Both the position numbers and the translations under genes were made by a program. A stretch of DNA of 14,628 nt from an uncultured Methanosarcinaceae archaeon (GTDB taxonomy: Archaea; Halobacteriota; Methanosarcinia; Methanosarcinales; Methanosarcinaceae), in contig CAVRJG010000025.1 of NCBI GenBank assembly GCA_963721455.1, positions 1-14,628 on the forward strand, read 5' to 3'. Of the stretch, positions 1-14,628 are shown in pieces (within the stretch, counting starts at the first letter, position 1; each line of letters opens with the position of its first letter). The notes below the pieces were generated by a model that saw only the letters and a program-made list of their open reading frames with translations, was not told the origin of the DNA and searched no databases.

Positions 1-427
1 CATCCATTATGAATCCGGATCCGGTTTAGCTTCCAAGTAGGGTAATTGTTATTTCAGCGCCGGTCTCGTCCATGGGATACTCGCCATAAGGACGGAACAT
101 CAGCATTCTGGACCCTGCATCCAGTAATCCGTTCACAGGCTCTTTTGATGCAGAACTTCTGACTATTACGGTTTCTTCCGTAATGGTTGCATTATTCATA
201 GGCATATCGAATTCGATCCAGATAGGAGAATCATGCCTGAAAGCAAAGGTCTGCCTGTCAGGAAAATGGACTTTACCTTCGGAGGAGCCTGCCCGTATTT
301 GAAAGGAACGGAAAAAGATTTTAAAGCTTCAGGGAGGCACTTACTGCAGCAGCACATTTTTTTTAACAGCATATATAATGGCAGCTCCTGCAAATGCACC
401 CAGCAGGAATTTACACCATTTATTCAT
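1..427 (-). pseudogene. Disrupted membrane-anchored Ig-like (Big_5-type) domain protein; runs off the left edge
   Basis: Three frames join into one protein. ATG at 427 gives MNKWCKFLLGAFAGAAIIYAVKK, then a shift at the T8 run 357-364 gives MCCCSKCLPEALKSFSVPFKYGQAPPKVKSIF, then a shift at A4 263-266 gives PDRQTFAFRHDSPIWIEFDMPMNNATITEETVIVRSSASKEPVNGLLDAGSRMLMFRPYGEYPMDETGAEITITLLGS, stop at 26-28, then TGSGFIMD. The P-V-S..P...I.I.F..PM...TI...L.F.P pattern fits Big_5. A purine-rich GAGGAGAGG lies upstream. Confidence 0.65.
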
Positions 428-454
428 TTTATGCAGTTTATCCTCTCCTCAATC

Positions 455-790
455 TTATTCCACTTCGATTTTATGCCCACTCTTTTTAGCAGCATGTTTT
501 TTAAAAGCGTATATGATTGTAGCTCCTGCAAGCACACCGAGAATAATTTTACCGAATTTCATAATTGAAGACCCCTTACCGGCTTCACGTGATTCTATTT
601 CTTCTTCTGGTTCCGCTTCTACTTTTTTATGAGATTTTTCTGACTTGAGTTTCTTAAGGAGATATGCCCCAAGAGCCAGCTTAGCATATCTATGCATTGT
701 CCCTTTGCTCTTTTGAGATCCCCCTGCCTTAATTTTCTTCATTAAATATGCGCTCAGCAACAGCTTACCATATCTCTTCATATTTATCAA
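455..790 (-). CDS. Small Lys-rich hypothetical protein with three amphipathic/hydrophobic repeats
   Basis: 111-aa ORF with SD-like AAGGGGGT before the TTG (alternative start ATG at 781). Internal repeats: MKRYGKLLLSAYLMKKIK, MHRYAKLALGAYLLKKLK, MKFGKIILGVLAGATIIYAFKK. Confidence 0.75.
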   Translation of the reverse strand: MINMKRYGKLLLSAYLMKKIKAGGSQKSKGTMHRYAKLALGAYLLKKLKSEKSHKKVEAEPEEEIESREAGKGSSIMKFGKIILGVLAGATIIYAFKKHAAKKSGHKIEVE

Positions 791-1101
791 TCTTGTACCC
801 CCTTAAGATTTCCCTGACCGGAGAGTCCCTTATTTCTTCATTTCGTCCGGAAAGGAGAGTAATATTAACTTAATACTCCTGTATTTATCCTATAGCTCAC
901 ATATTATATAACGGCAACTATATAAGATATCTAATAATTTTTAACTGAAAACTGTCTCCAGATGCTGTCAAATACCCGGTGAAAATACCGGAGATTATAG
1001 TAAACTCACAAATTAATTTCACTTATAAAAACCAATTATAGTTTAAAAAGTAAATATTTACACTTAAATCACTATAGGTTTTGAATCATTATAAGTTTTA
1101 T

Positions 1102-1186
1102 AACTACGAAAAACACAGGCGTGCAGAAAAAATCCCGATCAAGACACCGTAACCACGGAAAACACGGGAACCACGGAAAACACGGA
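1102..1186. repeat. 18-bp tandem repeat AACCACGGAAAACACGGR (x2, plus a degenerate third copy)
   Basis: 1151-1168 and 1169-1186 differ only at the last base. A degenerate copy aactacgaaaaacacagg lies at 1102-1119. Confidence 0.85.
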
Positions 1187-1220
1187 AAAACTGTAATCTC
1201 GTAAAAGTCTTTCAATTAGT

Positions 1221-1323
1221 CCTCTCGAGCGCAGCGAGAATGACAGCGCACTGCAGAGCCGTAACTCTGCCGAGAAGGACAGCGCACTGCAGAGCCGCAA
1301 CTCTGCTGGCGCAACTCGGGAGG
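1221..1323. repeat. GC-rich REP-like intergenic element with an internal 36-bp tandem duplication
   Basis: Units 1235-1270 and 1271-1306 are identical at 34 of 36 positions. The ends cctctcgag and ctcgggagg form an imperfect inverted repeat. It resembles the dispersed Methanosarcina GAGCGCAGCGAGAAGGACAGCGCACTGC repeat (from recall). Confidence 0.75.
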
Positions 1324-1577
1324 TTTATCATTTTGTTTGGGATTACAGGCAACTCAACAATTAACTGCAATTTCAAGCGTCGTTTACAGTTATTGTTCTT
1401 GTTTATATGTTTAAATATTTACTGCGTTGACTATAATTAAGTACTTTTATTAAGCACCTTTTTACAGGTTTTTCTTTCAGTTTTCACAAATAATAAATAT
1501 AATGCAATAATATTTGTATAATTATATGTGTTAAGCTAATACTGTGTTTTGAATAACGTTTTTCTTGTTCCTAATGA

Positions 1578-1605
1578 AAAGTGTCTGGAACAAAGTGTCT
1601 GAAAC
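1578..1605. promoter_or_regulatory. 14-bp direct repeat AAAGTGTCTGRAAC just upstream of a TATA-like element; possible operator
   Basis: 1578-1591 and 1592-1605 match at 13 of 14 positions and are followed by AAATAAATATATTA (~1617-1630) ahead of the ATG at 1658. Confidence 0.45.
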
Positions 1606-1657
1606 CTAACAGAGAAAAATAAATATATTAGTAAAGTTACAACTTATTGATTAAATT

Positions 1658-2080
1658 ATGCCAGTTGACAACCTACATGAAGTTGTGTGCCCAAACCCTG
1701 AATGTGAATATTATCTCAAGGTGGAAGGAAACGCGATCATAAAACGCGGAAAATATAAGACCGGACACCAGAGGTATTATTGTAAACATTGTGGGAAATT
1801 TTTCATGGACACGATAGGTACCGCTGTTTATCGCAAACATCTGTCTGGAGATGAAATAAAGCTGATATATCGGCTTTTTCTTGAAAAAAATGGGATACGC
1901 AGTATTGAACGGATAACAGGGCACCATAGGGATACAATAAGCCATCTGATAAGAGACACGGTAAAAAACCAAAAAACGGAAGAATATCTGGTCAAACAGA
2001 TAGGGCTGACAGATGATGAATGCGAAAAGTTATGGATACTTCTAGAAAAAAAAAGAGAAACTTCCCGAAAATTACCCTGA
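1658..2080 (+). CDS. IS1-family InsA-like zinc-ribbon + HTH protein without a catalytic DDE domain
   Basis: Zinc ribbon CPNPEC...GHQRYYCKHC, HTH GIRSIERITGHHRDTI, and an A9 run at 2046-2054 where IS1 frameshift sites sit. The -1 frame stops at 2107-2109. No terminal inverted repeats were seen. Confidence 0.8.
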   Translation: MPVDNLHEVVCPNPECEYYLKVEGNAIIKRGKYKTGHQRYYCKHCGKFFMDTIGTAVYRKHLSGDEIKLIYRLFLEKNGIRSIERITGHHRDTISHLIRDTVKNQKTEEYLVKQIGLTDDECEKLWILLEKKRETSRKLP

Positions 2081-2147
2081 AAAAAACAGGTGCAAAATTA
2101 TGTATCTAAACTTGAGTAAGCCGGTGTAGTATCGGAATTATATTTCC

Positions 2148-2188
2148 CATTATCCACAAAAGGACATTATCTCACAAAAGGACATTAT
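2148..2188. repeat. 16-bp direct repeat CACAAAAGGACATTAT x2
   Basis: Identical copies at 2155-2170 and 2173-2188, preceded by a partial CATTATC. Confidence 0.85.
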
Positions 2189-2728
2189 AATACACTGGCA
2201 GTAAACAAGTATTGTACATAGGGGCATCTATCTCATACTCCAGTACCCATTGAAGGTACCTGAAGATATTCGGCAGGATAGTTCCAAAGGTTGTTTTTCG
2301 GACTGTAAATCCAGAAGTTTGATAATATATAACGAATTGATTGCCGAGTAGCAAAAGCCATCTAAACCGATGGGTGTCCAGCCTTCGGCTTACAGTTTTA
2401 TAGCTTGAGCTATAAAGAATGCCTGAATTACATTACTTTTTTAAGATTATTAAATGAAATTTTAATAGGTTGATTTTACTTTGAGAAATAATTTTTCAGA
2501 GCTGATTTGAGATCTTTACAAATATTTGAAAGATCCACAAGTATTTTATAGAAGGACATTTAATAGAACTTATGCACTTTATAAAGAAATCTACTCCCTT
2601 GCAGTCAGTTGAAGAATTATGATTCGTATAGCCAATAATCTTACGCTGTTGATGTTGCAGGGGCCTGGAACCTTGAGTGCTTCAGTTAAAAAATTATAAT
2701 TCTTGATAAAAAGAAAGGAGCCAGACAT

Positions 2729-3997
2729 ATGAGTAAAAGTACAGCATTGAAGGCAATATTCCAGCTTTTATGTGTGTTGCTTTGCCTGGTACCAATACCA
2801 GCTGCATTTGCTCAACCGGAAGAGCTTAACGGAAATGTAATTTACGAAAACGGGACTTACGAAAATGTGACTCCTTATTCAGGAGTAATAATTACTGAGG
2901 GTCCCATAGTACATGAGATAAATCCGTATTACTATGATGATTACATACAGCAGGGGAAAAGCAACAACTTCAATGTGAGTTTCAGAAACAATGGTAATGA
3001 AGCTCTCGATATAAAACCGAAAATTGTACCCGCGCCTTACACTAATAGCAACCTTAGCGAAAGCTGGGTCACTATCTCCCCAACAAACATAACTGTAAAT
3101 GCGGGTGAAGAACAGAACTTTGCCGTCGGAATAACCATCCCGGAAGATGAGGATGGCGGGAGATATGAAGCCTCTATAGCTTTCACAGATGATATTGATC
3201 CGAATACCTCCCAATACGTCAATGTAATGTACCTTTCTGTAGGAGTTCCTATTATTCCGAAGCTGGAGGTTCAGACGAGTTATCTCTCTGATACCATTGA
3301 ACCTGGAAAGGAATATGAATACGCGATAAAAATCAAAAATGTGGCAGACAAGGATGTAACTATTGATCCGAAAGCTACCACCTACGGTATGTATGATGGT
3401 TCATTTAATACATTTGCTCTAAGCGATGATGCGATAGTGATCTCTGCACCTTCAATCATAAAAGCAGGTGAAATCACTAACATGAGCATCTTTACTTCGG
3501 TTCCGGAAAATGCGACAGGAGCTTACAACGGGTACATCGAAATGAACCCTGATGGGAAAGAGAATGACGGATCCGCCCCGCAAATAGGTCTGAGCTTTGT
3601 GGTTGAACGGCCGCCTGCAGTTCCTTACGTAAAAACCTTTAACACCATGACCGCCGACCCGATAACGATTGAAGTTTCGACTGATGCTTATGGCCTGGAT
3701 ATGTTGCCGCGTATCTCACCGAAAAAGGAAGAACCATCTTTGGAATTAAACCTGAAATACAATTCCAGCCCTGTTAATATGACCCTTGTAAAAACAACTC
3801 AAAGCAGCAATGTAAATAATGAAGGGTACAACTTCCCCATCTGGGCAATGGACGATAGCATGACCTATCAGAGTTATAACAACCACTATGTCGAAACCTA
3901 TACAATACCCGGAGCAATCGGAGATTGGGAACTTTCAATTCTCCCGAAAAATACGAATAGTTTTGACTATTCGATAACTGTCGGGAATTCAAAATAA
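2729..3997 (+). CDS. Secreted/cell-surface protein with tandem Ig-like beta-sandwich domains (NEW3/COG1470-like)
   Basis: 422 aa with SD AAGGAG and an N-terminal signal peptide (..IPAAFA|Q). Two similar modules: FNVSFRNNGN..WVTISP..V.AGE..IP..GRYEASI and Y.IKIKNV..I.AGE..VP..GAYNGYI. Many N-x-S/T sequons. Confidence 0.85.
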   Translation: MSKSTALKAIFQLLCVLLCLVPIPAAFAQPEELNGNVIYENGTYENVTPYSGVIITEGPIVHEINPYYYDDYIQQGKSNNFNVSFRNNGNEALDIKPKIVPAPYTNSNLSESWVTISPTNITVNAGEEQNFAVGITIPEDEDGGRYEASIAFTDDIDPNTSQYVNVMYLSVGVPIIPKLEVQTSYLSDTIEPGKEYEYAIKIKNVADKDVTIDPKATTYGMYDGSFNTFALSDDAIVISAPSIIKAGEITNMSIFTSVPENATGAYNGYIEMNPDGKENDGSAPQIGLSFVVERPPAVPYVKTFNTMTADPITIEVSTDAYGLDMLPRISPKKEEPSLELNLKYNSSPVNMTLVKTTQSSNVNNEGYNFPIWAMDDSMTYQSYNNHYVETYTIPGAIGDWELSILPKNTNSFDYSITVGNSK

Positions 3998-4217
3998 AAA
4001 GCATGAGTGCATATTAAAGCGGAAAAATTATGAGAAGTTGGCAGGATTGGTTTAAGTTATTCCTGGGTCCTGTTATCTATATTCTTTAATTTTTCCATTT
4101 TTTGTATTTTCTTTTTTACTTACTTTTTTCATTTTCCAATTATCCTTTTTTACCAGTGAAAAAGAAACCTCAGATTACAGTTTTTATTTTTTGTAATGAG
4201 AGTTTTGATGCAATACA

Positions 4218-4353
4218 AAGAATCCATGTGGATTCGGTTAAGGTACAAAACGCCAAAAAGTGTTATTTTTTGTGTAATATATCTAAGAATTATGTTGGAA
4301 AATCGCTATACGTGGTATTCGAAGTTGTGCATAAAATTCGTTAACCGATGACC
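4218..4353 (-). mobile_element. One-ended copy of the MITE/IS end found at 13421-13607 (inverted orientation)
   Basis: The reverse complement of 4273-4353 is identical to 13421-13501 (81/81), and the next 55 nt match at 43 of 55. It carries the GGTCATCGGTTAAC terminus. No second end was found. Confidence 0.85.
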
Positions 4354-4497
4354 AATGACAAAGAGTCAAACATTTTTCCGACCCCAAAACACGTGCCGAA
4401 AAAAGTGCCCAAGCCTCCGTTATTCAGTATCTTTCCGTGCTGTCGGTGGTTTACCTGCTGGTCTAAAATGGTTGAGGAACTTTGACACCTGAATATA

Positions 4498-4510
4498 GAA
4501 ATCTTTATAT
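4498..4510 (+). promoter_or_regulatory. BRE/TATA promoter of the DUF1015 gene, probably giving a leaderless mRNA
   Basis: GAAATC-TTTATAT ends 24 nt before the ATG at 4534, and there is no SD-like sequence in between. Confidence 0.55.
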
Positions 4511-4533
4511 CCTCTTTCTTTTTTTAACTAACT

Positions 4534-5718
4534 ATGATTTTACATGTTCCTTGTATTCTTCTTCCAAAGGACAATTGGGAAGAATGGGCAGTGATTGCCT
4601 GTGACCAGCATACTCAGGATATGGAGTACTGGAAAAGAGTTGAAGAATTTATTGGAAATACTCCTTCGACTTTTAATCTTATTTATCCGGAAATATATCT
4701 TCCTTTAGATGAAAAAAGAGTAAATAAGATTCATAAAGCTATAAGCAATTACAAAAAAATTCTTGTTGATCATGGCCCCTGCTTTATTCTTGTAAAGCGT
4801 TCTGTCGAAGGTAAGGAAAGAACCGGGCTTGTAGCTGCAATCGACCTGGAAAAATATGAATTCAACGGGTCTGATTCCTTTATCAAACCAACGGAAGGGA
4901 CTATTAAAGAAAGGCTTCCCGCAAGAGTCAGGATCAGAGAAAATGCGGAATTGGAGCTTTCGCATATTTTAGTATTGTATGATGATCCTGACTTTTCTGT
5001 AATTCCCAGAATTACGGATGATCCGGTTTATGAAGGCAATCAGGTCTATGATTTTGATTTGATGGAAAAGGGCGGCCATATCACTGGCTATAAGATCAGT
5101 GATGAAAAAACAATTAAGGAAATCTCGGATAAAATTCTAAGCCTGGGAACCCTTCTTGTTGGCGATGGAAATCACAGCCTTGCTGCGGCAAAGAGTTTCT
5201 GGGAGAAAATAAAAGGAACCGTGCCGGACAACCATCCTGCAAGATATGCAATGGTTGAACTTGTAAATATTCATGACCCGGGGCTTACCTTTGAGCCAAT
5301 TCACAGGGTTGTAAGCGGGGTTGAGCCTGAAGAGCTGCTCAAAAAGTTCAATGCAAGGATTGAAGAATCCCGGGCCTGTCATTCAACTGCTGATCTTTCA
5401 GCTGCAGGGCATTCAATCGGGTTTATTACAAAAGACAGGTGCGGTGTACTTGTTTTTGATAATCCAGCAAACGACCTTGAGGTCGAAACCCTTGATGAGG
5501 TCATTGATAATTATTCAGTCGAATATGAGCACGACCCTGAAATAGTAGAGAAGCTCGGAAAAGAGCAGGGTAATACCGGTTTTTTTCTTCCTCCCTTAAA
5601 AAAGAGCGAATTCTTTTCTCTCATAAAAAAGAAAGGTGTTCTTCCGAGAAAATCATTTTCTCTTGGAAAAGAAAATGAAAAGAGATATTATATCGAGGCT
5701 AGAAAGATTACTCCATAA
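4534..5718 (+). CDS. DUF1015 family protein (ParB/Srx-like fold)
   Basis: 394 aa with family-type motifs WAVIACDQ, IKPTEGTI.ERLP.R, VGDGNH, ELVNIHDPGL.FEPIHRV and LPRKSFS.G...EKRYY.EARKI. Confidence 0.9.
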   Translation: MILHVPCILLPKDNWEEWAVIACDQHTQDMEYWKRVEEFIGNTPSTFNLIYPEIYLPLDEKRVNKIHKAISNYKKILVDHGPCFILVKRSVEGKERTGLVAAIDLEKYEFNGSDSFIKPTEGTIKERLPARVRIRENAELELSHILVLYDDPDFSVIPRITDDPVYEGNQVYDFDLMEKGGHITGYKISDEKTIKEISDKILSLGTLLVGDGNHSLAAAKSFWEKIKGTVPDNHPARYAMVELVNIHDPGLTFEPIHRVVSGVEPEELLKKFNARIEESRACHSTADLSAAGHSIGFITKDRCGVLVFDNPANDLEVETLDEVIDNYSVEYEHDPEIVEKLGKEQGNTGFFLPPLKKSEFFSLIKKKGVLPRKSFSLGKENEKRYYIEARKITP

Positions 5719-6184
5719 CCTTTTTCCTTATCCTGTTATCTCTTTCAATTTTTCTTTATATCAGAATGATAAATGCAATCTATAGTCTCCCGAATGGCGC
5801 AAAGAGTAGAAAGAGGTATTCGAGCTAACCCGGAACGAGGAAAAAACACTTCTGAAGACTTTTCCCTTATTCTACCCGATTTGAAGCCCTATCGTTCCAG
5901 TTTTCGGGTGAAATGTGTACTTTAATTTTACTAAGTTTAACTTGCCCGTTTATCCGATCGCTTATGCTTAATTAGTATATATCTTTTAAATGTAGAATTA
6001 GCCGTGCTTTGATTGTGATAAGTGGGAAGAACTTAGAAGAGTTATCTGTAATTTTAAAAAGGACGATCCCAATTAAAAACGAATGTCTATTCATGAGAAA
6101 GCGACTTACTTTGACAGTCAAATTATAAATACCTTTAATCTAATAATTGATTTATCGGTTAAATAACCACTGGGGGAGTGAAGC

Positions 6185-6340
6185 ATACCGGATTTGATAG
6201 GGCTTGCTGTATTATTTCTAATACTAGCACTGGTTGCATATATAATGGGCGCACGGGGGATTGCCGGTTTCTCTATGGAGATTGCAAGGTGGCTCGTCAT
6301 AATCTTTATTATACTAGCCATTCTCTCGATTTTCTTATGA
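6185..6340 (+). CDS. DUF1328 / UPF0391 (YtjA-like) small two-helix membrane protein; not in the ORF track
   Basis: Translates to (I/M)[50 protein letters not shown]. The A..LG..GIAG....IA..L pattern is typical of the family. SD GGGGGAGTGA at 6172-6181. The start is ATA at 6185 or TTG at 6194. Confidence 0.9.
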
Positions 6341-6887
6341 CGGCAATCTCTGACGAAATGAATGTTAAGTTCGAAATTCATAACGCAAATCGGGGTGATA
6401 GACAGACATCATCGAAGACGGTTTACTCTTTAAAGTGTAGCGATTCCTGACAATTAACCTCTCAGGCACATTGAAGTTTAATTTATTTCCTTTCCTTTAT
6501 CAATTTTTTTAGAAAATTCTAAAAAATATAGGACTTCTTCCGCATTTTCAATGAACTTAATTTCTCTGGTTAAACTATTTGCCAGTTGAGCCAGAGATAA
6601 AGGCAATTAAAACTTTTTTATAAGTTAAACGATGTTTATTACGGAAGAAGATATGCGCATTCAATAAATGCGTGAACTGTCAAATTAGCCTTAATTGAGT
6701 TAATTTAACTTAAATCGGCTTCGATAAAGGACAGCTTATCAGTTCACTACCCTTTAAGTGTACTAATTATTATCCTTGTACTAATCTATAATATTAGTTT
6801 ATACCAATATATTTATATTGTTTGTAGGAATCCCCCGCTTAACTAATCGAAGTATCATCCATACTTTGAATGTACTGGGGAATCAAA

Positions 6888-8996
6888 GTGAACAGATTAA
6901 TCATTTTATTGGCAACTTTTCTTATCTTAACATTAGGCTCGGGTATCGGAACTGCAGCTGAGATTTATGTCCAGCCCGGAGATTCGATACAAACGGCAGT
7001 GGACAATGCAATTTCAGGCGATGTGATTATCTTAAAACCCGGAACCTATACCGAAAATGTCAAAATAAACAAGGATGATCTCGTAATAAGGTCGGAGTCC
7101 GGGAATCCTGATGATACAATAATCACGGCTAAAAGCTCAAGCAATCATGTGCTTGCCCTGCAAGCAGATAACGTGAAAATTAGCGGGCTTGAGATTACAG
7201 GAACAAAAGAAAGCTATACAGGAATCTACCTGTCCGGCTGTAATAACTGCATCATTGATAACAACAAAATTTTGAACAACGGTTATGGAATTTATCTTCT
7301 GAATTCTAAAGGCAACACGCTCTCAAATAATAAGGTTACGAATAACGGAGAATACGGGATCTTATTCTCAATAGCCAGCAACAATACCCTCTCCGGAAAT
7401 ACGGCTTCTGACAATAAAGGCCGTGGCATCCATATAGGTACTTCTGACGGCAACACGCTCTCAGGCAATACCATGTCTTCAAATGGCGTTTACGGCCTGT
7501 TTGTCTGTTCCAAGAGCGATAATAACCTTGTTTTTAACAACTATTTCAATAATACCGTCAATGCAGAAATTAAAAACGGAATCGGAAATTCGTACAATAC
7601 CACAAAAACCGAAGGTACGAATATTGTCGGCGGTTCCTACTTTGGAGGTAATTTCTGGGCAGAACCTGATGGTTCAGGTTTTTCTGAAACCGCAATAGAT
7701 ACGGATGGAGATGGCATTGCGGATTCTGCATATAGACTCGCTAACAGTATCTATTCTGACCAGTTGCCTCTTGTATCTGCATCCATGCCTCAGCAGCCAG
7801 TATTTCCGGTAGCAGATTTCAAAATGGACAATAGTAGCGGTCCTGCTCCTCTTTCCGTCCAGTTTACCGACCTGTCAGAAAATGCAGTTTCGTGGAGCTG
7901 GGATTTTGAAAACGACGGAAATATTGACTCTATAGACGAAAATCCGGTTTATACGTTTACAACGCCGGGAACTTATACCGTCACCCTCACTGTCACCAAT
8001 GAAAATGGAGCGGCTTCCAAAACTGCCACGGTAACTGTTACGCAAGCCATGGAAAATAATTCCGCAAACAACGTAACCGGGGATAATGTAACTGAAAACA
8101 CCGGAACCGGAGATAATATTACTGAAAATATTACTGAAAATAGCGGGACTGAAAGCAGCAGCGGAGATAATGTAGCCGGAGACAGTCAAGCGAGTGGCGG
8201 TGGAACCGATTACAGTCAAACTGAGGACAGCGGAACTGAAGATGATGGAAGCAGCAGTGGTGGAAGCAGCCACAGCAGCGGTGGCGGCGGCGGTGCAGGC
8301 GGTTCCCCTGAACCTGCAAAAAATGTTGAGGTAAAGGAAATTTCACAGACATTTATCTCAAACGACAAAAATATAAAGTTTGATTTCGCAAAGAACGCAA
8401 CCTGTGTTGTGTATGTGAACTTTGACGCAAAAAAGACAGTTGGTAAGACAACAGCCATAGTCGAGATGTTAAAAGAAAAATCCTCACTTGTCTCCGAGCT
8501 GCCTTCAGGCGAGGTCTACAGGTCTTTTAATATCTGGGTCGGAAACGGCGGGTATGCAACCTCTGAGAATATCGAAAATTCGACCATATATTTCAAGGTT
8601 GAAAAATCCTGGATACAGGAAAAGAACATCAATAAATCTTTTATCACCTTCAACAGGTACGACGACGGGAAATGGGAGCAATTGCCAGTAAGCCTGTCAG
8701 AGGAAGATGACAGATTCCTGTATTTCACAGCACAAACCCCCGGCTTCTCATTCTTTGCAATAACAGGTAAGAATGAGGAGGAAGAAACTGCAGTAACTGA
8801 TTCACCGCCTGGTCCACAGCCTGGATCGAAAGCTAACGACCTTAACGGAGAGAATACTGACGTTATAAACAGGTCAAATGTTGAACAGGCACTTGAAAAA
8901 AGAGCAAGCGCACGCTCTCCTGGATTTGAAACGGTTTACGGAGTTATTTCCCTTCTTGCCTTATTCCTGTACAAAAAAGTAAAACCAGGAAATTAA
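6888..8996 (+). CDS. Cell-surface protein: NosD/right-handed beta-helix + PKD + Ser/Gly linker + PGF-pre-PGF domain + PGF-CTERM
   Basis: Signal peptide, IYVQPGDSIQ.AV..A..GD.I...PGTYTEN, Asn-rich GI.L..S..NT repeats, GGNFW..PDG.GFS, PKD WSWDF..DG, GGGGAGGSPEP.KNV, TPGFSFFAITG and a C-terminal SPGF + hydrophobic helix + KK (archaeosortase signal). GTG 6888 after GGGGA is preferred over ATG 6870. Confidence 0.95.
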   Translation: MNRLIILLATFLILTLGSGIGTAAEIYVQPGDSIQTAVDNAISGDVIILKPGTYTENVKINKDDLVIRSESGNPDDTIITAKSSSNHVLALQADNVKISGLEITGTKESYTGIYLSGCNNCIIDNNKILNNGYGIYLLNSKGNTLSNNKVTNNGEYGILFSIASNNTLSGNTASDNKGRGIHIGTSDGNTLSGNTMSSNGVYGLFVCSKSDNNLVFNNYFNNTVNAEIKNGIGNSYNTTKTEGTNIVGGSYFGGNFWAEPDGSGFSETAIDTDGDGIADSAYRLANSIYSDQLPLVSASMPQQPVFPVADFKMDNSSGPAPLSVQFTDLSENAVSWSWDFENDGNIDSIDENPVYTFTTPGTYTVTLTVTNENGAASKTATVTVTQAMENNSANNVTGDNVTENTGTGDNITENITENSGTESSSGDNVAGDSQASGGGTDYSQTEDSGTEDDGSSSGGSSHSSGGGGGAGGSPEPAKNVEVKEISQTFISNDKNIKFDFAKNATCVVYVNFDAKKTVGKTTAIVEMLKEKSSLVSELPSGEVYRSFNIWVGNGGYATSENIENSTIYFKVEKSWIQEKNINKSFITFNRYDDGKWEQLPVSLSEEDDRFLYFTAQTPGFSFFAITGKNEEEETAVTDSPPGPQPGSKANDLNGENTDVINRSNVEQALEKRASARSPGFETVYGVISLLALFLYKKVKPGN

Positions 8997-9008
8997 TTAG
9001 AGACAGAG

Positions 9009-9052
9009 ACAAAAGGATTAAATAAAAACAACAAAACGATTAAATAAAAGCA
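9009..9052. repeat. 22-bp tandem duplication in the 3' region of the surface-protein gene
   Basis: acaaaaggattaaataaaaaca (9009-9030) and acaaaacgattaaataaaagca (9031-9052) match at 20 of 22 positions. Confidence 0.75.
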
Positions 9053-9056
9053 ACAG

Positions 9057-9098
9057 AATGAGGGTTTTAGACCTTCATTTTCTTTTTTGCAGTTTTTT
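9057..9098 (+). terminator. Hairpin plus oligo-T terminator candidate
   Basis: AATGAGGGT pairs with ACCTTCATT, followed by TTCTTTTTTG and a further T6 run. Confidence 0.55.
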
Positions 9099-9189
9099 AC
9101 CTGGGTAAACTGAGAGAGTATCTGAACTCTTGTTTGCCCGGTATTGATAAACAATTTTTTAGATAATATTTTTATCCTGCATTCGGCAG

Positions 9190-9940
9190 ATTCGACAAGA
9201 GGCTATACTATGAATTGCGGAAACGCCACCCCCTCCATTTGAGGTAATCCTAATGTGACATGCATAAATGGTAACGTTTGTGTGTGAAGCTCACAGGACA
9301 ATATCAAGAAATCAAGGAGCCTGACTTTGATAATTGGTTAGGATAAGAATACTATGAAGAACATAAAGTGAACCATCGTAAAAATCGTGAAGTAGAATGA
9401 GCGAAAACAGGTTGACACGTTCAAACCAAAAGGTATAGAATCAGGCCATAATGGGTCTGCCGACATTATGGCAAATGGACAAACGGTTCTCGGTTTACAG
9501 ATGGCTTCTAAGGTATTCACATTATTCGTGGTATGGAACCTGCTAAACCCTAAATGCTCCCATAATGGGTAGGATTCTCGCGAAGGATGACGAAGGCATT
9601 GAGGGTAGAGGATTCAGTAAAAAGCGAATGCCAGCCTGTAATGGGCTGGATAGAGGTTCAAACTTTGCCTTGATCCGAAAGGATGCAGACTTACTGATGG
9701 TGTTTTCTTGTGTGAACGGAAACAAACTCACGAATGTAAGATACTCAAAGACACCTACAGGTGAGAGGCTTACAGACAGTTATGTTAGTGGACTGTTATC
9801 CGGAATCACAAAATCAGTTATGCACAATAACTGATGCCTGATACAGAAAAGGTTTGAAAACACTCGAGCCGTATGAAGGGAAACTTTCAAGTACGGTTCC
9901 TGGGGGAGAAAGGAGGAGTAATCCTCCCAACTTATCCGAC
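9190..9940 (+). ncRNA. ORF-less group II intron (IIB structure, probably chloroplast-like class), 751 nt
   Basis: DV GAGCCGTATGAAGGGAAACTTTCAAGTACGGTTC (9866-9899). DVI has a bulged A at 9934 and ends in GAC. The DI basal stem pairs 9195-9200 with 9706-9711. Ic1 has a GTAA loop and an AAGC bulge (9287-9290). Alpha (9234-9241) pairs with alpha' (9472-9479). EBS1 CTGCCG lies at 9457-9462. DII is 9712-9731, DIII 9735-9774, and DIV is only about 90 nt. Confidence 0.93.
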
Positions 9941-9950
9941 GTTAACGTAC

Positions 9951-10060
9951 TTATAGGTAGATATTTTCATATTTCTTTCCCATGAGACTCAATATTTTCC
10001 AGTGAATCTCCTCCATATTCAATATTTCTGACTCAATTTCCTCTTCTTTCTGAGTTAAGT
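9951..10060 (-). pseudogene. IS1634 transposase C-terminal fragment
   Basis: TQKEEEIESEILNMEEIHWKILSLMGKKYENIYL* matches the typical ..ILSL.G..Y..IY ending of IS1634 transposases. Confidence 0.8.
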
Positions 10061-10238
10061 GGCTCTTCGCTGTTTCGAGTGGGTAATTTACATCCATTTC
10101 TAACTATGGAAGTAGCATGCATAAAATTTAGAAACGTTTGTTGTTGAAAATCACAGTCAAGCTCGATGTTTTTCATTTTGGCCGGACAACTGTCTAACTA
10201 AGCAATTATTTTCAACCCATACAAAACAGCGAAGAGCC
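10061..10238. mobile_element. 178-bp MITE with perfect 15-bp TIRs (IS5-family-like ends)
   Basis: GGCTCTTCGCTGTTT (10061-10075) and AAACAGCGAAGAGCC (10224-10238). No coding capacity and no target-site duplication. Confidence 0.88.
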
Positions 10239-10611
10239 TGATATCATTACTTGCAAGAAGGAAAAGCCCCATTTTCTCCATTTCTTTCAAAATACAAGCA
10301 TCATTAACCTTTATGTTGCCTTCAATCCTGCAATATGTCTTTAATTTCTCATCTTTTGAAGGTCTGCCTCTTTTACCCGGTTCACGTTTATTAATGGCTT
10401 TTAAATCTACTTTATCAAACATGACAGAAGAGAATTCTTGAATCCATTTATCTGCAGCTTTTAATGCATCTTCTTCACAGAAGAAGTCCTCACCTTTCAG
10501 CTTTTTAAAAGACGTCTCTGCTTTTTCAAGCTTCTTTCTTAGAGTTTCCCCTTTCTTCTCTTTCATCTTATGAGAAAGCAACAAAGCCCACTTTTGTTTG
10601 ACTCCGCCATG
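10239..10611 (-). pseudogene. IS1634 transposase central fragment
   Basis: GGVKQKWALLLSHKMKEKK...FFCEEDALKAADKW...KRGRP...GLFLLASNDI carries IS1634 motifs. The N-terminus is missing, and the last 13 aa of the tracked ORF are read from the MITE. Confidence 0.88.
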
Positions 10612-10695
10612 AACGACCGGAAGATACTATGCATGTTGCCTTGGAATAGTACCAATCGATTAAGCACGGAATATCTATTAGCGTTGAAATAATTC

Positions 10696-12090
10696 TTATT
10701 TCCGCCAGCTCCTCTCCATTTTCTCGTACAGGCCAATTAAATTATTCCTTGTGATCTTGAAATAGGGGTGGTCGGGACCGTATTCTTTTTCGATTATGTC
10801 GAGGGCTTTTTCGTAGAGGTCGATTGCGGTTTCGTATTCGTCCATGCTTTCATGGAGGCCTGCGAGGTTGTTCAGGGTAGTGCCGACATCGGGATGGGTC
10901 GAGCCGAGGGTCGTTTCGTAGATCTTGAGGGCGCGGGTGTAGAAGGGGAGGGCTTTTTTGTGCTGGCCGAGGATTCTGTGGAGTTCGCCAAGGTTGTTCA
11001 GGGTCTTGGCAACGTCAGGATTGTCAGGGCCGAGGATACGCTCGCGGATTTCAAGGGCTCGCGTGTAGAGTTCAAGGGCTTTTTCGTGACGACCTTTCTG
11101 GACGTAGACGCCTGCCAGGTTGTTCAGGGTTGTGGCAAAACCCGTGTGTTCGGTTTTTCCGAGTTTTTCCATGATTTCCAGAGACCGGGTATAGAGGATC
11201 TGGGCTTTCTCATACCGTGTGGTCTGGAAATAGAGAAGGGCGAGATTGTTCAGGGTTTGCGCTACCTGCGGGTGCTCCGGGCCATACACCTTTTCCTGAA
11301 GCTTTAAAGCCTGCCCGTACCTGTCTTCAGCCTCCTCAAGTTTGCCCATTTCCGAGAGCAGGACACCCAGGTTATTCAGGGTCCCGGCTTTATATGACAT
11401 AACCCCGTGATTGTCAGGCTCCTGCTCCTGAAGCTTATCAAGAAATTCGAGAGCCCTGGTGAAGAGTTCCTCAGCCTTTTCGGGTTTTTCCATTCCCTTG
11501 TAAAAAAAAGCCATCCTGTTTAGGGTTCTGACAGCAGCAGGATTTTCCGGACTCAGAAATTTTTCCTGAATTTCCAGCGCCCGGCTATAGAATGAAAGGG
11601 CTTCTTCATGCCTGTTCATTAAATAGTAGAGAGTGCCCAGTTCACTGAGCGTATCCCCGGTCTCATGCCGTTTTTGTCCAGGGATATTTTCACGGGTCTT
11701 AAGTGCCCTGGAAAAAAGCCTGAGGGCCTCTTCATAGTTTCCCATATAGCGGTAAATTCCTGCAAGCCCATTCAGCGCAGTTGCAGTTTCCGGACTTTCA
11801 GGCCCGAGGTTCTTTTCCGCAATATCAAGCAGCTCTTCATACAGAGGCAACAGCATTTTCCAGGACCCTGACCTATAGAAAGGCTCGGCTTTGACGGTGA
11901 ACCAGCTTACCAGTTCCCCAGGCTCGATAACCTCTTTTGCATGCATAAAAGCCTCCTTTAAGGCTATCTCATCTCCCTCGGTAACGAGTTCCGGGTCCAG
12001 ATCTTTCAGCCGTTGTCCATACCTTTCAAGCATAACCCTGTGTTTTTCCGCTTTTTCTTCCACTTTTTTTTCTGCGTTTTTATCTTCCAT
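10696..12090 (-). CDS. Tetratricopeptide-repeat protein (42-aa kinesin-light-chain-type TPRs)
   Basis: Repeated HP.VA.TLNNLA.LY...G.YE.A..LY.RALEI.E..LG units. The frame stays open upstream to 12174, next to a strong SD, so the true start may lie further 5'. Confidence 0.95.
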   Translation of the reverse strand: MEDKNAEKKVEEKAEKHRVMLERYGQRLKDLDPELVTEGDEIALKEAFMHAKEVIEPGELVSWFTVKAEPFYRSGSWKMLLPLYEELLDIAEKNLGPESPETATALNGLAGIYRYMGNYEEALRLFSRALKTRENIPGQKRHETGDTLSELGTLYYLMNRHEEALSFYSRALEIQEKFLSPENPAAVRTLNRMAFFYKGMEKPEKAEELFTRALEFLDKLQEQEPDNHGVMSYKAGTLNNLGVLLSEMGKLEEAEDRYGQALKLQEKVYGPEHPQVAQTLNNLALLYFQTTRYEKAQILYTRSLEIMEKLGKTEHTGFATTLNNLAGVYVQKGRHEKALELYTRALEIRERILGPDNPDVAKTLNNLGELHRILGQHKKALPFYTRALKIYETTLGSTHPDVGTTLNNLAGLHESMDEYETAIDLYEKALDIIEKEYGPDHPYFKITRNNLIGLYEKMERSWRK

Positions 12091-12444
12091 CTCAACAGAG
12101 CTGCTTTCGGCAGGAACTCCTTCTTTTCCTGAAATTTCTTCTTTCTCTGAGTTTTTCCTGGAATTGATCGTAATTCACCCCTCCTTAATGAAAAGCAGGA
12201 TAATGAAGGTTTTTATTTGGAGATCTAACTGGATCTAACTCTAAATATTCCAGAGTGCTCCTATATTAAGTATTATAAGTTAGTAGTTATAATCCTGCAG
12301 ATTTGTAGTCTTAAACCTGCATGATTTTGTATGAATGTTATATGTCTTACATATCAGTAGTCAGGGTTGTGCAGGTTTGCAGGTTTAGAACTAAGCTTTG
12401 TTGTTTGTAGTTCTGGACATGGGGTCTGTTCGCGTGTCCTCTAT

Positions 12445-12496
12445 GTTACATGAAGAAGCATAAAACCCGTGGGCCTTTAGCTCAGGGGTAGTTCAC
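12445..12496 (+). mobile_element. IS200/IS605 (TnpB/IS1341-type) right-end remnant
   Basis: ...AAAACCCGTGGGCCTTTAGCTCAGGGGTAGTTCAC fits the characteristic right-end hairpin (CTTTAG loop region) ending in GTAGTTCAC. No tnpB ORF lies upstream. Confidence 0.65.
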
Positions 12497-12539
12497 CAGT
12501 TCAGTAATCTGCACGTCTGCTCTTTGCAAATCACTATTT

Positions 12540-12695
12540 AAATCCTCGTTTCGTCTGTGGCTTCACCCGATCTTCCAGGCAGGGGTCACAGATAAAAAGT
12601 ATGGGGCTTATTTGCTTGTGACCGCTTCCCGAACTCCTGGGGCATTGGACTCGTCACCCTGGAGCCAATCGGCATACCACCTTTCTCAAACTGTC
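12540..12695 (-). ncRNA. Structured small RNA candidate, resembling the Methanosarcina sRNA162-like family
   Basis: GC-rich non-coding island starting GTTTGAGAAAGGTGGTATGCCGATTGG. It has nested stems CCGA/TCGG, CTCC/GGAG and GGG/CCC, then GAAGC and a GGTCACA/TGTGACC hairpin. The family name is from recall only. Confidence 0.6.
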
Positions 12696-12766
12696 AAAAA
12701 CAACAGTATGGAACAAAAACAAATTTGAAACTAAACAAGAAAGAGTGGGGAAGAAGCTAAGAATAC

Positions 12767-12952
12767 TTACTGCCAGGACATCTTATCGAGAATCTTGATT
12801 AAATTACTTGCCTCATCAAAGGATAATTCAGGCCAGCTCTTTTCGTATTCACCACAATACTTACTAATTTTTTTATGCCTCTCCATGTACCGAAGAGACT
12901 TTACTACTAAATTTTTTTGCCTAATAGTCATCGAAGAATCTCTAAACTCCAT
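12767..12952 (-). CDS. Small hypothetical protein (61 aa)
   Basis: SD AAGGAG 6 nt before the ATG, an amphipathic C-terminal helix LSFDEASNLIKIL, a TATA-like TATATATA at ~13055-13062 and a T-rich tract downstream. Confidence 0.65.
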   Translation of the reverse strand: MEFRDSSMTIRQKNLVVKSLRYMERHKKISKYCGEYEKSWPELSFDEASNLIKILDKMSWQ

Positions 12953-13420
12953 AAAATACTCCTTAGATCATGCCTTCATTTTTCAGTATTCTGTAGCTGT
13001 AATCAATCAAAAATCCGGAAACATTAAAAACGTTATACTTTTTGATTGTGATCTATATATATAGCTCACACTATATATACATACCTTACGAGGATATATT
13101 TATTGGATATAAATACCAATATATTCCTGTATTTTTATATGAAATACTCCTGACATTATAACCTAATTTGACAGATTCTGCTAATTAATACAGTATTTTC
13201 TTACAAAAAACACATTTCATCGACACATTACCTCTATGTAATATGAAAAATATCAAAAATCAATAAACATGAGATATATATTTGAATTGTATGAAGAAAA
13301 CAGAGGTAAGAAGCCCATTTATATATTATAAAATATATGCTTCTGTTAAATTAGGTTAAAAAAATAGAACGGGAGGAATAAACAGAGCTTGCAGAGTGGA
13401 GATCAAAGAGAAGATTAATT

Positions 13421-13607
13421 GGTCATCGGTTAACGAATTTTATGCACAACTTCGAATACCACGTATAGCGATTTTCCAACATAATTCTTAGATATATTAC
13501 ATAGAAAATAAGACTTATTGGGGGTTTGCACCTTAACTGGATCCATATGAATTTTTATTAATATTATAAAAATAGAGAAGAGATTATCTAATGGTTAACC
13601 GATGACG
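13421..13607. mobile_element. 187-bp MITE with 14-bp TIRs, flanked by AATT on both sides
   Basis: GGTCATCGGTTAAC (13421-13434) and GTTAACCGATGACG (13594-13607, one terminal mismatch). AATT at 13417-13420 and 13608-13611. A second partial copy lies at 4218-4353. Confidence 0.88.
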
Positions 13608-13611
13608 AATT

Positions 13612-13958
13612 ATAACTCTTTTAGTTGTCTTTCTGGATTATCTGCGAAGCCTTTCAGAGCCTCAGTTCCGCGGGAATACACAACCACCGACTTATCCTGA
13701 AAGTCGAGCTTTGATCTATTGTATAGATCTTGACAACTCAAATAAGGGCAAGCCGGCAGAGAGACGTTGGTGTATGGGAAGATTAATATGCTGTGCAAGG
13801 AAGCAGGTATATATAAAAAGAAGGCAGGTACACTTGCAAACGTATCAAACTATCTTCGGCACAAAAATTTTGCAATGACTATGCTTTATGTGAAGATATC
13901 GACTGTAGATATACAAAAATAGATGGATGAAGTAGGCGGTCCTATACTGGATAAATAA
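13612..13958 (+). pseudogene. Tyrosine recombinase/integrase C-terminal remnant
   Basis: LDYLRS...PESRALI...SNKGKP, then a frameshift, then RETLVYGKINMLCKEAGIYKKKAGTLANVSNYLRHKNFAMTMLYVKISTVDIQK*MDEVGGPILDK*. L.H....T..Y matches the catalytic-Tyr box. The H-x-x-R box is missing. Confidence 0.65.
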
Positions 13959-14042
13959 CGAGTGTTACATGATATTGTTTTTTATATCGCTTTATATCCT
14001 TAAGATGATTGTGTTTTATTGGATTGCGAAAAGAATACTTAG

Positions 14043-14557
14043 GTGGAGAAAAAAGAGGCGAGGGTAGAATTGGATTTTGAAGCTGACATAATGCTAACAG
14101 TGAGGCGCAAAGATCCAACGTTGAAACTGTGTCGAAAGTAAAAGATTCCTACATCCATGTGACTAGTCTGAGCTTGCGAACTGCGCCTATCAGCACTGAA
14201 GGTCCTGTCAGCCTGGCAACAGGCACACCCTGGAGGAAAAGCAATTATTTTTGTCATTGCAGACTGTGGAGAATGTCCAGGCAATCATCCTTTTTGAATA
14301 TACATAATATGAATAACCTTTTTGTCTAAAAAATGTCAATATCCAGCGGGAGATTAACACAATTCTCTTTCTACAGATGGGATTTTCATGCACATTCTGG
14401 ACACTTTTTTGATCCTGAGAGAAAGGGCAAGACCAGGCCAATTTATAGGCTTGAATTGGAAGAAAAGAGAGATTTAAGCCCGGTGGCACCGGAATTTTTA
14501 GCTCTTTTGAGGCAGCTGAAAGACAGTCAGGAAATTTCAGAGAGATTGGCGGAATAG
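14043..14557 (+). pseudogene. Probable decayed gene of unknown family
   Basis: Successive short protein-like segments in different frames: VEKKEARVELDFEADIMLTVRRKD, ALKVLSAWQQAHPGGKAIIFVIADCGEC and FDPERKGKTRPIYRLELEEKRDLSPVAPEFLALLRQLKD. Confidence 0.3.
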
Positions 14558-14628
14558 CGAGAGGGCGAAGGCCTTAACCCTATTACCAGAATCCCACCAT
14601 GTTTTTAGCTCCGGGTGATTCAATTGCT

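Follow-up and report, generated by a model that had tools for sequence, protein, structure and literature searches.

A group II intron without an open reading frame in the terminal inverted repeat of an IS1634-family element from an uncultured Methanosarcinaceae archaeon

Introduction

The hiding of group II introns in mobile elements is treated as well known in the relevant section of PMC7306698. Passages of Mohr, Ghanem, Lambowitz (2010, PMC2882425) describe the introns TeI3/TeI4 of Thermosynechococcus elongatus as one lineage comprising families with diverged exon-binding sites (EBS) and targets, where family F4 lies at a conserved site in ISEL1, an insertion sequence (IS) of the IS200 family, and others lie in other introns. 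The portion of the review by Zimmerly and Semper (2015, PMC4424553) that concerns target choice reports that class C (IIC) introns target integron attC sites and transcription terminators, and it quotes Dai and Zimmerly (2003) for the introns of Methanosarcina acetivorans, which are nested in one another and have no coding exons. Here, we describe a group II intron without an open reading frame (ORF) in a stretch of 14,628 nt (contig CAVRJG010000025.1 of assembly GCA_963721455.1, positions 1 to 14,628; hereafter the window) from an uncultured Methanosarcinaceae archaeon, where it interrupts the terminal inverted repeat (TIR) of an IS1634-family element. No account of group II introns homing into the terminal repeats of IS elements, or of MITEs (miniature inverted-repeat transposable elements), was found in the openly searchable full texts, a scope to which subscription papers, supplements and the intron database do not belong.

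Results

An ORF-less group II intron with an atypical 5′ end

The intron, its target and the elements that pair between them are located in the window as follows; IBS denotes an intron-binding site.

9176–9189, plus strand: outer 14 nt of the right TIR of an IS1634-type element, forming the 5′ exon; C9176 is the terminal base and the DNA upstream of it is unrelated among copies
9177–9182, plus strand: IBS2, CTGCAT, in the 5′ exon
9183–9189, plus strand: IBS1, TCGGCAG, directly 5′ of the intron
9190–9940, plus strand: ORF-less group II intron, from Rfam matches and alignment to the genome's other copies
9227–9337, plus strand: part of domain I (Rfam group-II-D1D4-7, RF02012; 66.5 bits, E 4.3e-12, full model 1–151)
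9390–9395, plus strand: EBS2, AAGTAG, pairing with the flank at 5/6 positions and with CTACTT, the left repeat in intact IS copies, at 6/6
9445–9472, plus strand: Id3-type hairpin carrying EBS1, CTGCCGA (9457–9463), in its 10-nt loop
9864–9940, plus strand: domains V and VI (RF00029; 58.0 bits, model 1–77, the match stopping exactly at 9940)
9941–9946: inner 6 nt of the repeat, GTTAAC, within the right-end IS fragment
9941–10057, minus strand: right-end IS fragment of 117 bp, 91.5% identical to the copies on contigs C13, C30 and C67 (transposase aa 508–542, 91%)
9951–9953: transposase stop, followed by the last 35 codons at 9954–10058

The intron is 751 nt long, and the two Rfam matches lie above the gathering scores of their models (34 for RF02012 and 40 for RF00029). 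Domain V (D5) corresponds to 9866–9899, includes the AGC triad and reads GAGCCGUAUG...GUACGGUUC, whereas what supports domains I to IV (D1–D4) beyond the RF02012 match is solely the 86–91% alignment to other copies. The bulged A near 9934, as read from the alignment, is the probable branch point, and the terminal AC fits the 3′ AY motif of group II introns. Within the genome, the intron is ~91% identical to 10 ORF-less copies, with all matches stopping at 9940, and 86–87% identical to the D1–D3 part of three copies that encode a reverse transcriptase (RT) and measure 2143–2148 nt; similarity to the latter breaks at 9777 and returns in D5. The sole ORF of at least 80 aa within the intron (9565–9834, 89 aa) had no family match in an NCBIfam search, and the intron is therefore classed as ORF-less.

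The 5′ end departs from the GUGYG motif, starting ATTCGAC (AUUCG) in place of the canonical GTGCGAC. The canonical start is present in 15 of 17 aligned intron rows, and ATTCGAC occurs only in the window copy and in its twin on contig C12. Because homology to the canonical copies is unbroken from base 4, the AUUCG start would appear to reflect the decay of a true group II member.

The intron interrupts the right TIR of an IS1634-family element

An intact IS of 1719 bp is present at C30:7276–8994 and encodes a 542-aa transposase with the domains DUF4277 and DDE_Tnp_1, which scores 390.3 bits on NF033559 (NCBIfam IS1634 family, cut-off 100). Its terminal repeats, which were read directly from the sequence after an automated repeat search had missed them, are CCTACTTTCGGCAGGTAAAC on the left and, on the other strand, CCTACATTCGGCAGGTTAAC on the right, and agree at 18 of 20 positions. 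The target-site duplications of IS1634 copies are TTATT (C30) and CCTTAT (C13).

The empty site was found at all three intron-free right ends of the genome (C67, C30 and C13), where CCTACATTCGGCAG continues directly into GTTAACGTAATTA, the 3′ exon thus starting with GTTAAC, and where the DNA upstream of the initial CC is unrelated. Metagenome contigs from two public runs (X1 and X4) likewise join CCTACATTCGGCAG straight to the sequence found from 9941 onward in the window. The window flank differs from the intact IS copies by one base (G9179, where these have A), and 9941–9953 reads GTTAACGTAC and then TTA. These comparisons place the intron exactly 14 nt inside the right TIR, where it runs antisense to the transposase, lies outside the ORF and splits the 20-nt repeat into 14 and 6 nt.

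Guide sequences covary with the transposon repeat

The Id3-type hairpin has a 9-bp stem (GCCATAATG/CATTATGGC, 9445–9453/9464–9472) and is the minimum free energy fold of its segment (−12.7 kcal/mol); 11 of 200 shuffled sequences fold as well. In the window, IBS1 and EBS1 form seven of seven Watson-Crick pairs; the chance of an exact 7-nt complement at one fixed pair of places is ~6e-5 by arithmetic. IBS2 and EBS2 form four Watson-Crick pairs and one G-U pair, with one mismatch. Since the local fold around EBS2 is no better than that of shuffles (z −0.22), its assignment derives from covariation only, the EBS2 column varying together with IBS2 among the subfamilies (AAGTGG, AAGCAG, AATTTG).

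The pairing between EBS and IBS covaries among four intron subfamilies:

Window copy: EBS1 CTGCCGA with IBS1 TCGGCAG; EBS2 AAGTAG with IBS2 CTGCAT (perfect complement, CTACTT)
RT-encoding subfamily: EBS1 CTGCCGA with IBS1 TCGGCAG; EBS2 AAGCAG with IBS2 CTGCTT
Abundant ORF-less subfamily: EBS1 CTGCGGA with IBS1 TCCGCAG; EBS2 AAGTGG with IBS2 CCACTT
C49-type subfamily: EBS1 TACAGAA with IBS1 TTCTGTA; EBS2 AATTTG with IBS2 CAAAAG

Across 16 copies, IBS1 and EBS1 pair at seven of seven positions without exception, through the three variants TCGGCAG/CTGCCGA, TCCGCAG/CTGCGGA and TTCTGTA/TACAGAA, while IBS2 and EBS2 pair at six of six positions in 11 copies, at five in two and at four in three. Both guide sequences thus covary with the variant of the transposon repeat that the intron occupies.

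The lineage occupies transposon ends across the genome

The genome is a 73-contig draft, in which repeat counts are lower bounds, and contains 18 RF00029 (D5/D6) matches. The 14-nt terminus motif C[CT]N[AG]CNTTC[CG]GCAG occurs at 103 sites against ~2 expected from base composition (arithmetic), and an intron 5′ end follows directly after the motif at 15 of them. Motif sites pair as IS copies or as MITEs, non-coding elements of 230–278 bp that begin and end with the motif and mostly carry 6-bp duplications; MITEs of this kind are presumably mobilised by the IS1634-type transposase. Target-site duplications of 5–7 bp abut the motif in 28 of 34 pairs, which identifies the motif as the element's true outer end. 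Duplications also flank composites of a MITE with an RT-encoding intron (C15:59908–62310, TTTTAT) and of a MITE with an ORF-less intron (C71:26844–27844, TAATAT). The 3′ flank of most intron copies has intron-free homologues, in which the terminus is contiguous.

The share of perfectly matching sites that are occupied differs among the subfamilies, amounting to 5/7 for the abundant subfamily and 3/15 for the RT-encoding type. For the window copy, none of the 35 CCTACTTTCGGCAG left-repeat sites, which match both its EBS1 and its EBS2 perfectly, is occupied.

A further subfamily extends the pattern to another transposon family. The C49-type introns (C49:3888–4646 and C50:19989; EBS1 TACAGAA) lie 23 nt inside the terminus of an IS256-family element, at the junction of GGCAGTGTAYCRAAAGTTCTGTA with AAAT. 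The corresponding IS256-type element (C52:70900–73400) has a transposase scoring 271 bits on NF033543, and two of its 29 termini in the genome are occupied. The intron lineage thus specialises in transposon ends, namely those of IS1634-type IS elements and MITEs (14 nt inside) and of IS256-type elements (23 nt inside).

Three further loci of the same genome were noted. At C35:15037–17147, a more distant intron of RT-encoding size (67% similar) is inserted in another repeated element; conservation among seven intron-free copies extends at least 40 nt upstream of its site, so that the insertion is not at the very terminus. The IS1634 copy at C13:7558–10602 is split by a ~1.3-kb insertion (about 7968–9291), itself repeated, and has an intact CCTTAT duplication. 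At C59:1468–1633, the first 166 nt of an ORF-less intron precede a full copy (1852–2600); the two pieces, which have an identical 5′ flank and terminus, form a tandem partial duplication.

Intact RT-encoding relatives are present in the same genome

The three RT-encoding copies are 99.7–99.9% identical and are inserted in two different MITE families. Each contains a 512-codon open frame with the YADD motif, and the 497-aa RT/maturase has the Pfam domains RVT_N, RVT_1 and GIIM and scores 353.7 bits on TIGR04416; a Pfam search of this intron-encoded protein (IEP) detected no HNH/endonuclease domain. The occurrence of near-identical RT-encoding copies with open frames in two MITE families argues for recent retrohoming and not for passive transposition, and these relatives could supply the maturase/RT in trans to the window intron.

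These results agree in most respects with a preliminary description that had been made from the letters of the window alone. It had located TCGGCAG, CTGCCGA, AAGTAG, CTGCAT and 9941–9953 correctly, and the pairings that it gave for EBS1 (7/7) and for the EBS2 candidate (5/6, one G-U) were recovered here. Its central claim, an ORF-less group II intron homed in an IS1634 TIR, is borne out by the Rfam matches (66.5 bits for D1 and 58.0 bits for D5/D6, from the group II models that it had proposed to run), by the empty sites and by the 390.3-bit transposase, and the intron is indeed antisense to the transposase, whose stop is at 9951–9953, and lies outside the ORF. The intron-free copies that it predicted, with CGGCAG joined to GTTAAC, exist at 3/3 IS right ends, and the related RT-encoding intron that it suggested seeking is present in three intact copies. 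The other intron copies occupy the corresponding ends of transposons and not unrelated sites, and 9176–9189 is an IS terminus, as the duplications abutting the motif in 28/34 pairs indicate. The ATTCGAC start, the remnant state of the IS and the G9179 difference had escaped it.

Related junctions in other genomes and public reads

Related introns were found in 24 of the 41 genomes covered by a search of relatives, the window's own genome included. Within the genus, junctions of the same kind are present in five genomes (G004, G009, G013, G015 and G024), and IS256-type junctions were found at four loci (L039, L040, L058 and L127). When 185,579 species genomes were scanned for exact occurrences of the 18-mer TTCSGCAG followed by GTGCGACAAG, 57 matches were returned; 16 of them continue as an intron of this lineage, and every one of these comes from a record labelled Methanosarcina, Methanosarcinaceae or Methanobacteriota (M. 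spelaei MC-15, sp. Mfa9, sp. 2.H.T.1A.6 and metagenome-assembled genomes [MAGs]). Each of these 16 junctions follows a C[CT]NNNN terminus, and the DNA upstream of that terminus is unrelated; since TTCSGCAG was fixed in the scan by design, the independent part is limited to the 6 nt preceding it. The 3′-end pattern was found at 2 of the 16 loci, most loci being cut by contig or locus limits, and at the two loci with complete introns the 3′ exons are homologous to MITE ends of the window's genome. The other 41 matches are not introns of this kind (40 in bacterial or other non-Methanosarcina records, one in a Methanosarcina MAG), which is consistent with the ~35 chance matches expected by arithmetic for an 18-mer.

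Two loci of the same-genus genomes have unusual 5′ ends. At G009:C138:1202, a related intron starts ATGCGAC after CCTACATTCCGCAG and has an EBS1 with one mismatch; here G1 has been lost at a terminal-repeat site for a second time, independently. At G015:C1:753020–753160, the 5′ ends of two introns are separated by 23 nt (GTGCGACAAGAAGTTATGCCATG followed by GTGCGACAAG...), which looks like the nested intron-in-intron arrangement described for M. acetivorans.

Public reads covered at most 0.22 of the sampled words in any run. The contigs built from them contained intron-free IS ends from relatives; none bridged the window locus and none held a spliced junction, for which CCTGCATTCGGCAG joined to GTTAACGTAC is expected, a result that has no bearing on expression.

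State of the window locus

Downstream of the right-end fragment, the remnant of the host IS continues as follows.

10061–10238, no strand assigned: unrelated MITE of 178 bp with a perfect 15-nt terminal repeat (GGCTCTTCGCTGTTT)
10238–10610, minus strand: internal IS fragment of 373 bp (transposase aa 278–409), 86–87% identical to the copies on C13, C30 and C67

The MITE, of which more than 15 copies at 96–100% identity exist elsewhere in the genome, occupies a deletion junction where ~300 bp of the IS is missing. The internal fragment matches positions 731–1115 of a query in which the IS spans 298–2019, and the window IS ends with it; the left end is absent, and in total ~1.2 kb of 1.72 kb is missing. 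Beyond the IS remnant lies a TPR gene.

On the other side of the intron, a terminator-like hairpin with a T-run (9060–9090) follows a NosD/PKD-domain gene (6870–8996). The hairpin is kept in the homologous loci of relatives and would limit read-through into the intron.

Window positions 5884–13551 are 98.7% identical to a 7.7-kb block of C12 (52426–44763), and 13608–14621 are 94.5% identical to C12 44760–43743; these blocks stem either from a segmental duplication or from a strain variant that was co-assembled. The sole other member of the window subfamily lies inside the 98.7% block, so that the intron/IS locus is present twice, and because the block is near-identical, the two copies count as one insertion event. 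A repeat of ~135 bp that occurs more than 20 times in the genome is present at 4221–4358 and 13414–13553 of the window in opposite orientations, and its second copy coincides with the break between the two blocks (13551/13608).

Discussion

Taken together, our analysis makes it very probable that the window intron retrohomed into the right TIR of an IS1634-family element by EBS/IBS pairing, with an RT supplied in trans and as a member of a TIR-targeting lineage, and that this copy is now a relic. In the mechanism that we propose, EBS1 would pair with IBS1 and EBS2 with IBS2, which together make up the outermost 13–14 nt of the TIR, and this pairing would govern the choice of target. The excised intron RNA, together with the trans-supplied RT/maturase, would then reverse-splice into DNA after base 14 of the TIR, and cDNA synthesis might be primed, on the analogy of other introns that lack an endonuclease, from the nascent strands of replication forks. 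As the window intron has no ORF, it would need help in trans for both splicing and reverse transcription, and as its RT-encoding relatives have no detectable endonuclease domain, priming would depend on host replication. Every insertion reads inward from the transposon end, which implies that transcription of the intron starts in flanking host DNA.

The window copy itself is most likely an old inactive relic, judging from its ATTCG start, its truncated and internally deleted IS, the 0/35 occupancy of matching sites and an RF00029 score of 58.0 against 63.5 for the abundant subfamily. It is unlikely that the copy instead still works as a ribozyme and, with splicing and mobilisation in trans, remains active as a hyper-parasite, even though its D5 is the same as that of the abundant subfamily, its EBS1 pairs perfectly, both of its Rfam domains exceed the gathering thresholds, intact RT sources exist in the genome and the ATGCGAC intron inserted in a TIR of G009 shows that G1A variants can persist. 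Against this stand the change of two out of five positions in the most conserved motif, which among the 17 aligned rows is seen in this lineage only, the vacancy of all perfectly matching termini, the status of its only sister as a segmental twin, the long-dead host IS and the terminator-like hairpin between the upstream gene and the intron. The suggestion in the preliminary description of a hyper-parasite of a multicopy, conserved site accordingly holds for the lineage, where the genome-wide pattern supports it, but sits less well with the window copy, whose 5′ motif is mutated and which has no recent sister insertions. Its further suggestion that the intron could travel as IS cargo finds no support for this copy, whose IS has lost its left end and ~1.2 kb and whose TIR is split into 14 and 6 nt.

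The same split repeat and missing IS end speak against a broader version of that idea, in which the introns would spread mainly as passengers of IS elements or MITEs transposing as a unit and not by site-specific retrohoming. Two composites of an RT-encoding intron and a MITE on C15 do have the appearance of passenger transposition, as their MITE parts are 98.3% alike and 88–89% identical to intron-free copies, their 5′ flanks differ and composites retain target-site duplications. However, a 99.9%-identical RT-encoding intron resides in two unrelated MITE families (GTCGACAT... and GTAACTTG...), near-identical ORF-less copies occupy at least five different elements, and the covariation of EBS with IBS is a signature of retrohoming; we therefore regard predominant passenger spread as improbable. 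A chance or ectopic insertion beside an IS fragment, with the 14 nt as ordinary flank, is hardly credible: the fragmentary state of the window IS makes its context alone ambiguous, but the exact junction is present at three empty sites, the motif is found at 103 sites against ~2 expected with 15 occupied at the identical offset, target-site duplications abut it, and independent genomes show the identical junction.

Several points nevertheless weigh against retrohoming guided by these pairings, or against the relic status of the copy, as proposed here. The inactivity of the window copy is deduced from its 5′ motif, whereas other group II introns mutated at G1 retain slow splicing. IBS2 pairs imperfectly in the window, and a candidate EBS3, C9416 (C if the 3′ exon begins with G and T if it begins with A, in 16/16 copies of this genome), failed in two relatives (L061 and L070). 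With 12 of 15 termini that match the RT-encoding type perfectly standing empty, something beyond the 14 nt must limit insertion. A search of 58 same-genus genomes with 8500–9189 as the query yielded no orthologous empty locus, the matches being a repeated surface-protein domain and the conserved terminator hairpin. The sole RNA-library contig (X15; 660 nt on 9234–9824, 33 differences) derives from a relative and may be DNA carry-over. To these are added the draft state of the genome and the fixed core of the junction scan.

Extending the retrohoming interpretation beyond this locus, we tentatively propose, as a view that is plausible if somewhat short of probable, that a Methanosarcina intron lineage homes to the ends recognised by transposases (14 nt inside IS1634-type and 23 nt inside IS256-type ends), that its EBS co-diversify with these ends, that endonuclease-less RT-encoding copies drive the ORF-less ones and that, by splitting the repeats, insertion may disable transposon ends. 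The target is the functional transposon end itself, the terminal 14 nt of an inverted repeat common to an IS family and MITEs, which in each genome offers the intron dozens of targets that are neutral and renew themselves and ties the evolution of its guide sequences to that of transposon ends. The lineage is thus a natural system for asking how an endonuclease-less intron locates short targets, by what means archaeal ORF-less introns are driven in trans and whether intron insertion inactivates transposon ends, a point at which two classes of selfish elements interact. If the latter is true, a retroelement would be curbing DNA transposons and not merely hiding in them. For annotation, the pattern explains the apparent absence of coding exons and the contig breaks at such junctions in related genomes.

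Among known systems, RmInt1 of Sinorhizobium meliloti (in ISRm2011-2) shares with the window lineage an endonuclease-less IEP and a homing site inside an IS. Its target, however, lies in the IS body or transposase gene and not in the terminal repeat, and the intron is bacterial and full-length. The IIC introns, as characterised in the pertinent part of PMC4424553, resemble the lineage in that they target a non-coding site at which another mobile element recombines and in that their IEP has no endonuclease domain; unlike the window lineage, in which EBS1 pairs over 7 bp and EBS2 over 6 bp, they recognise a DNA stem-loop and a short IBS1. The RNA of the window intron matches the Rfam D1D4-7 model. 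The M. acetivorans introns, as quoted in PMC4424553, share the kind of host, the coexistence of ORF-less and RT-encoding introns, the non-coding flanks and the homing into other mobile DNA, but the pattern quoted there is of homing into related introns and ORFs, not into the terminal repeats of IS elements or MITEs. From the passages of PMC2882425 on TeI3/TeI4, the T. elongatus introns are the closest analogue: there too, families have diverged targets, and many ORF-less copies coexist with few RT-encoding copies that act in trans. The host, unlike that of the Methanosarcina introns, is bacterial and thermophilic, and those passages describe the IS target as a conserved site and not as a terminal repeat, with neither MITE targets nor a tracking of TIR variants. 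The specialisation on transposon ends is thus a new form of a known strategy, and its interest lies in the lineage-wide pattern.

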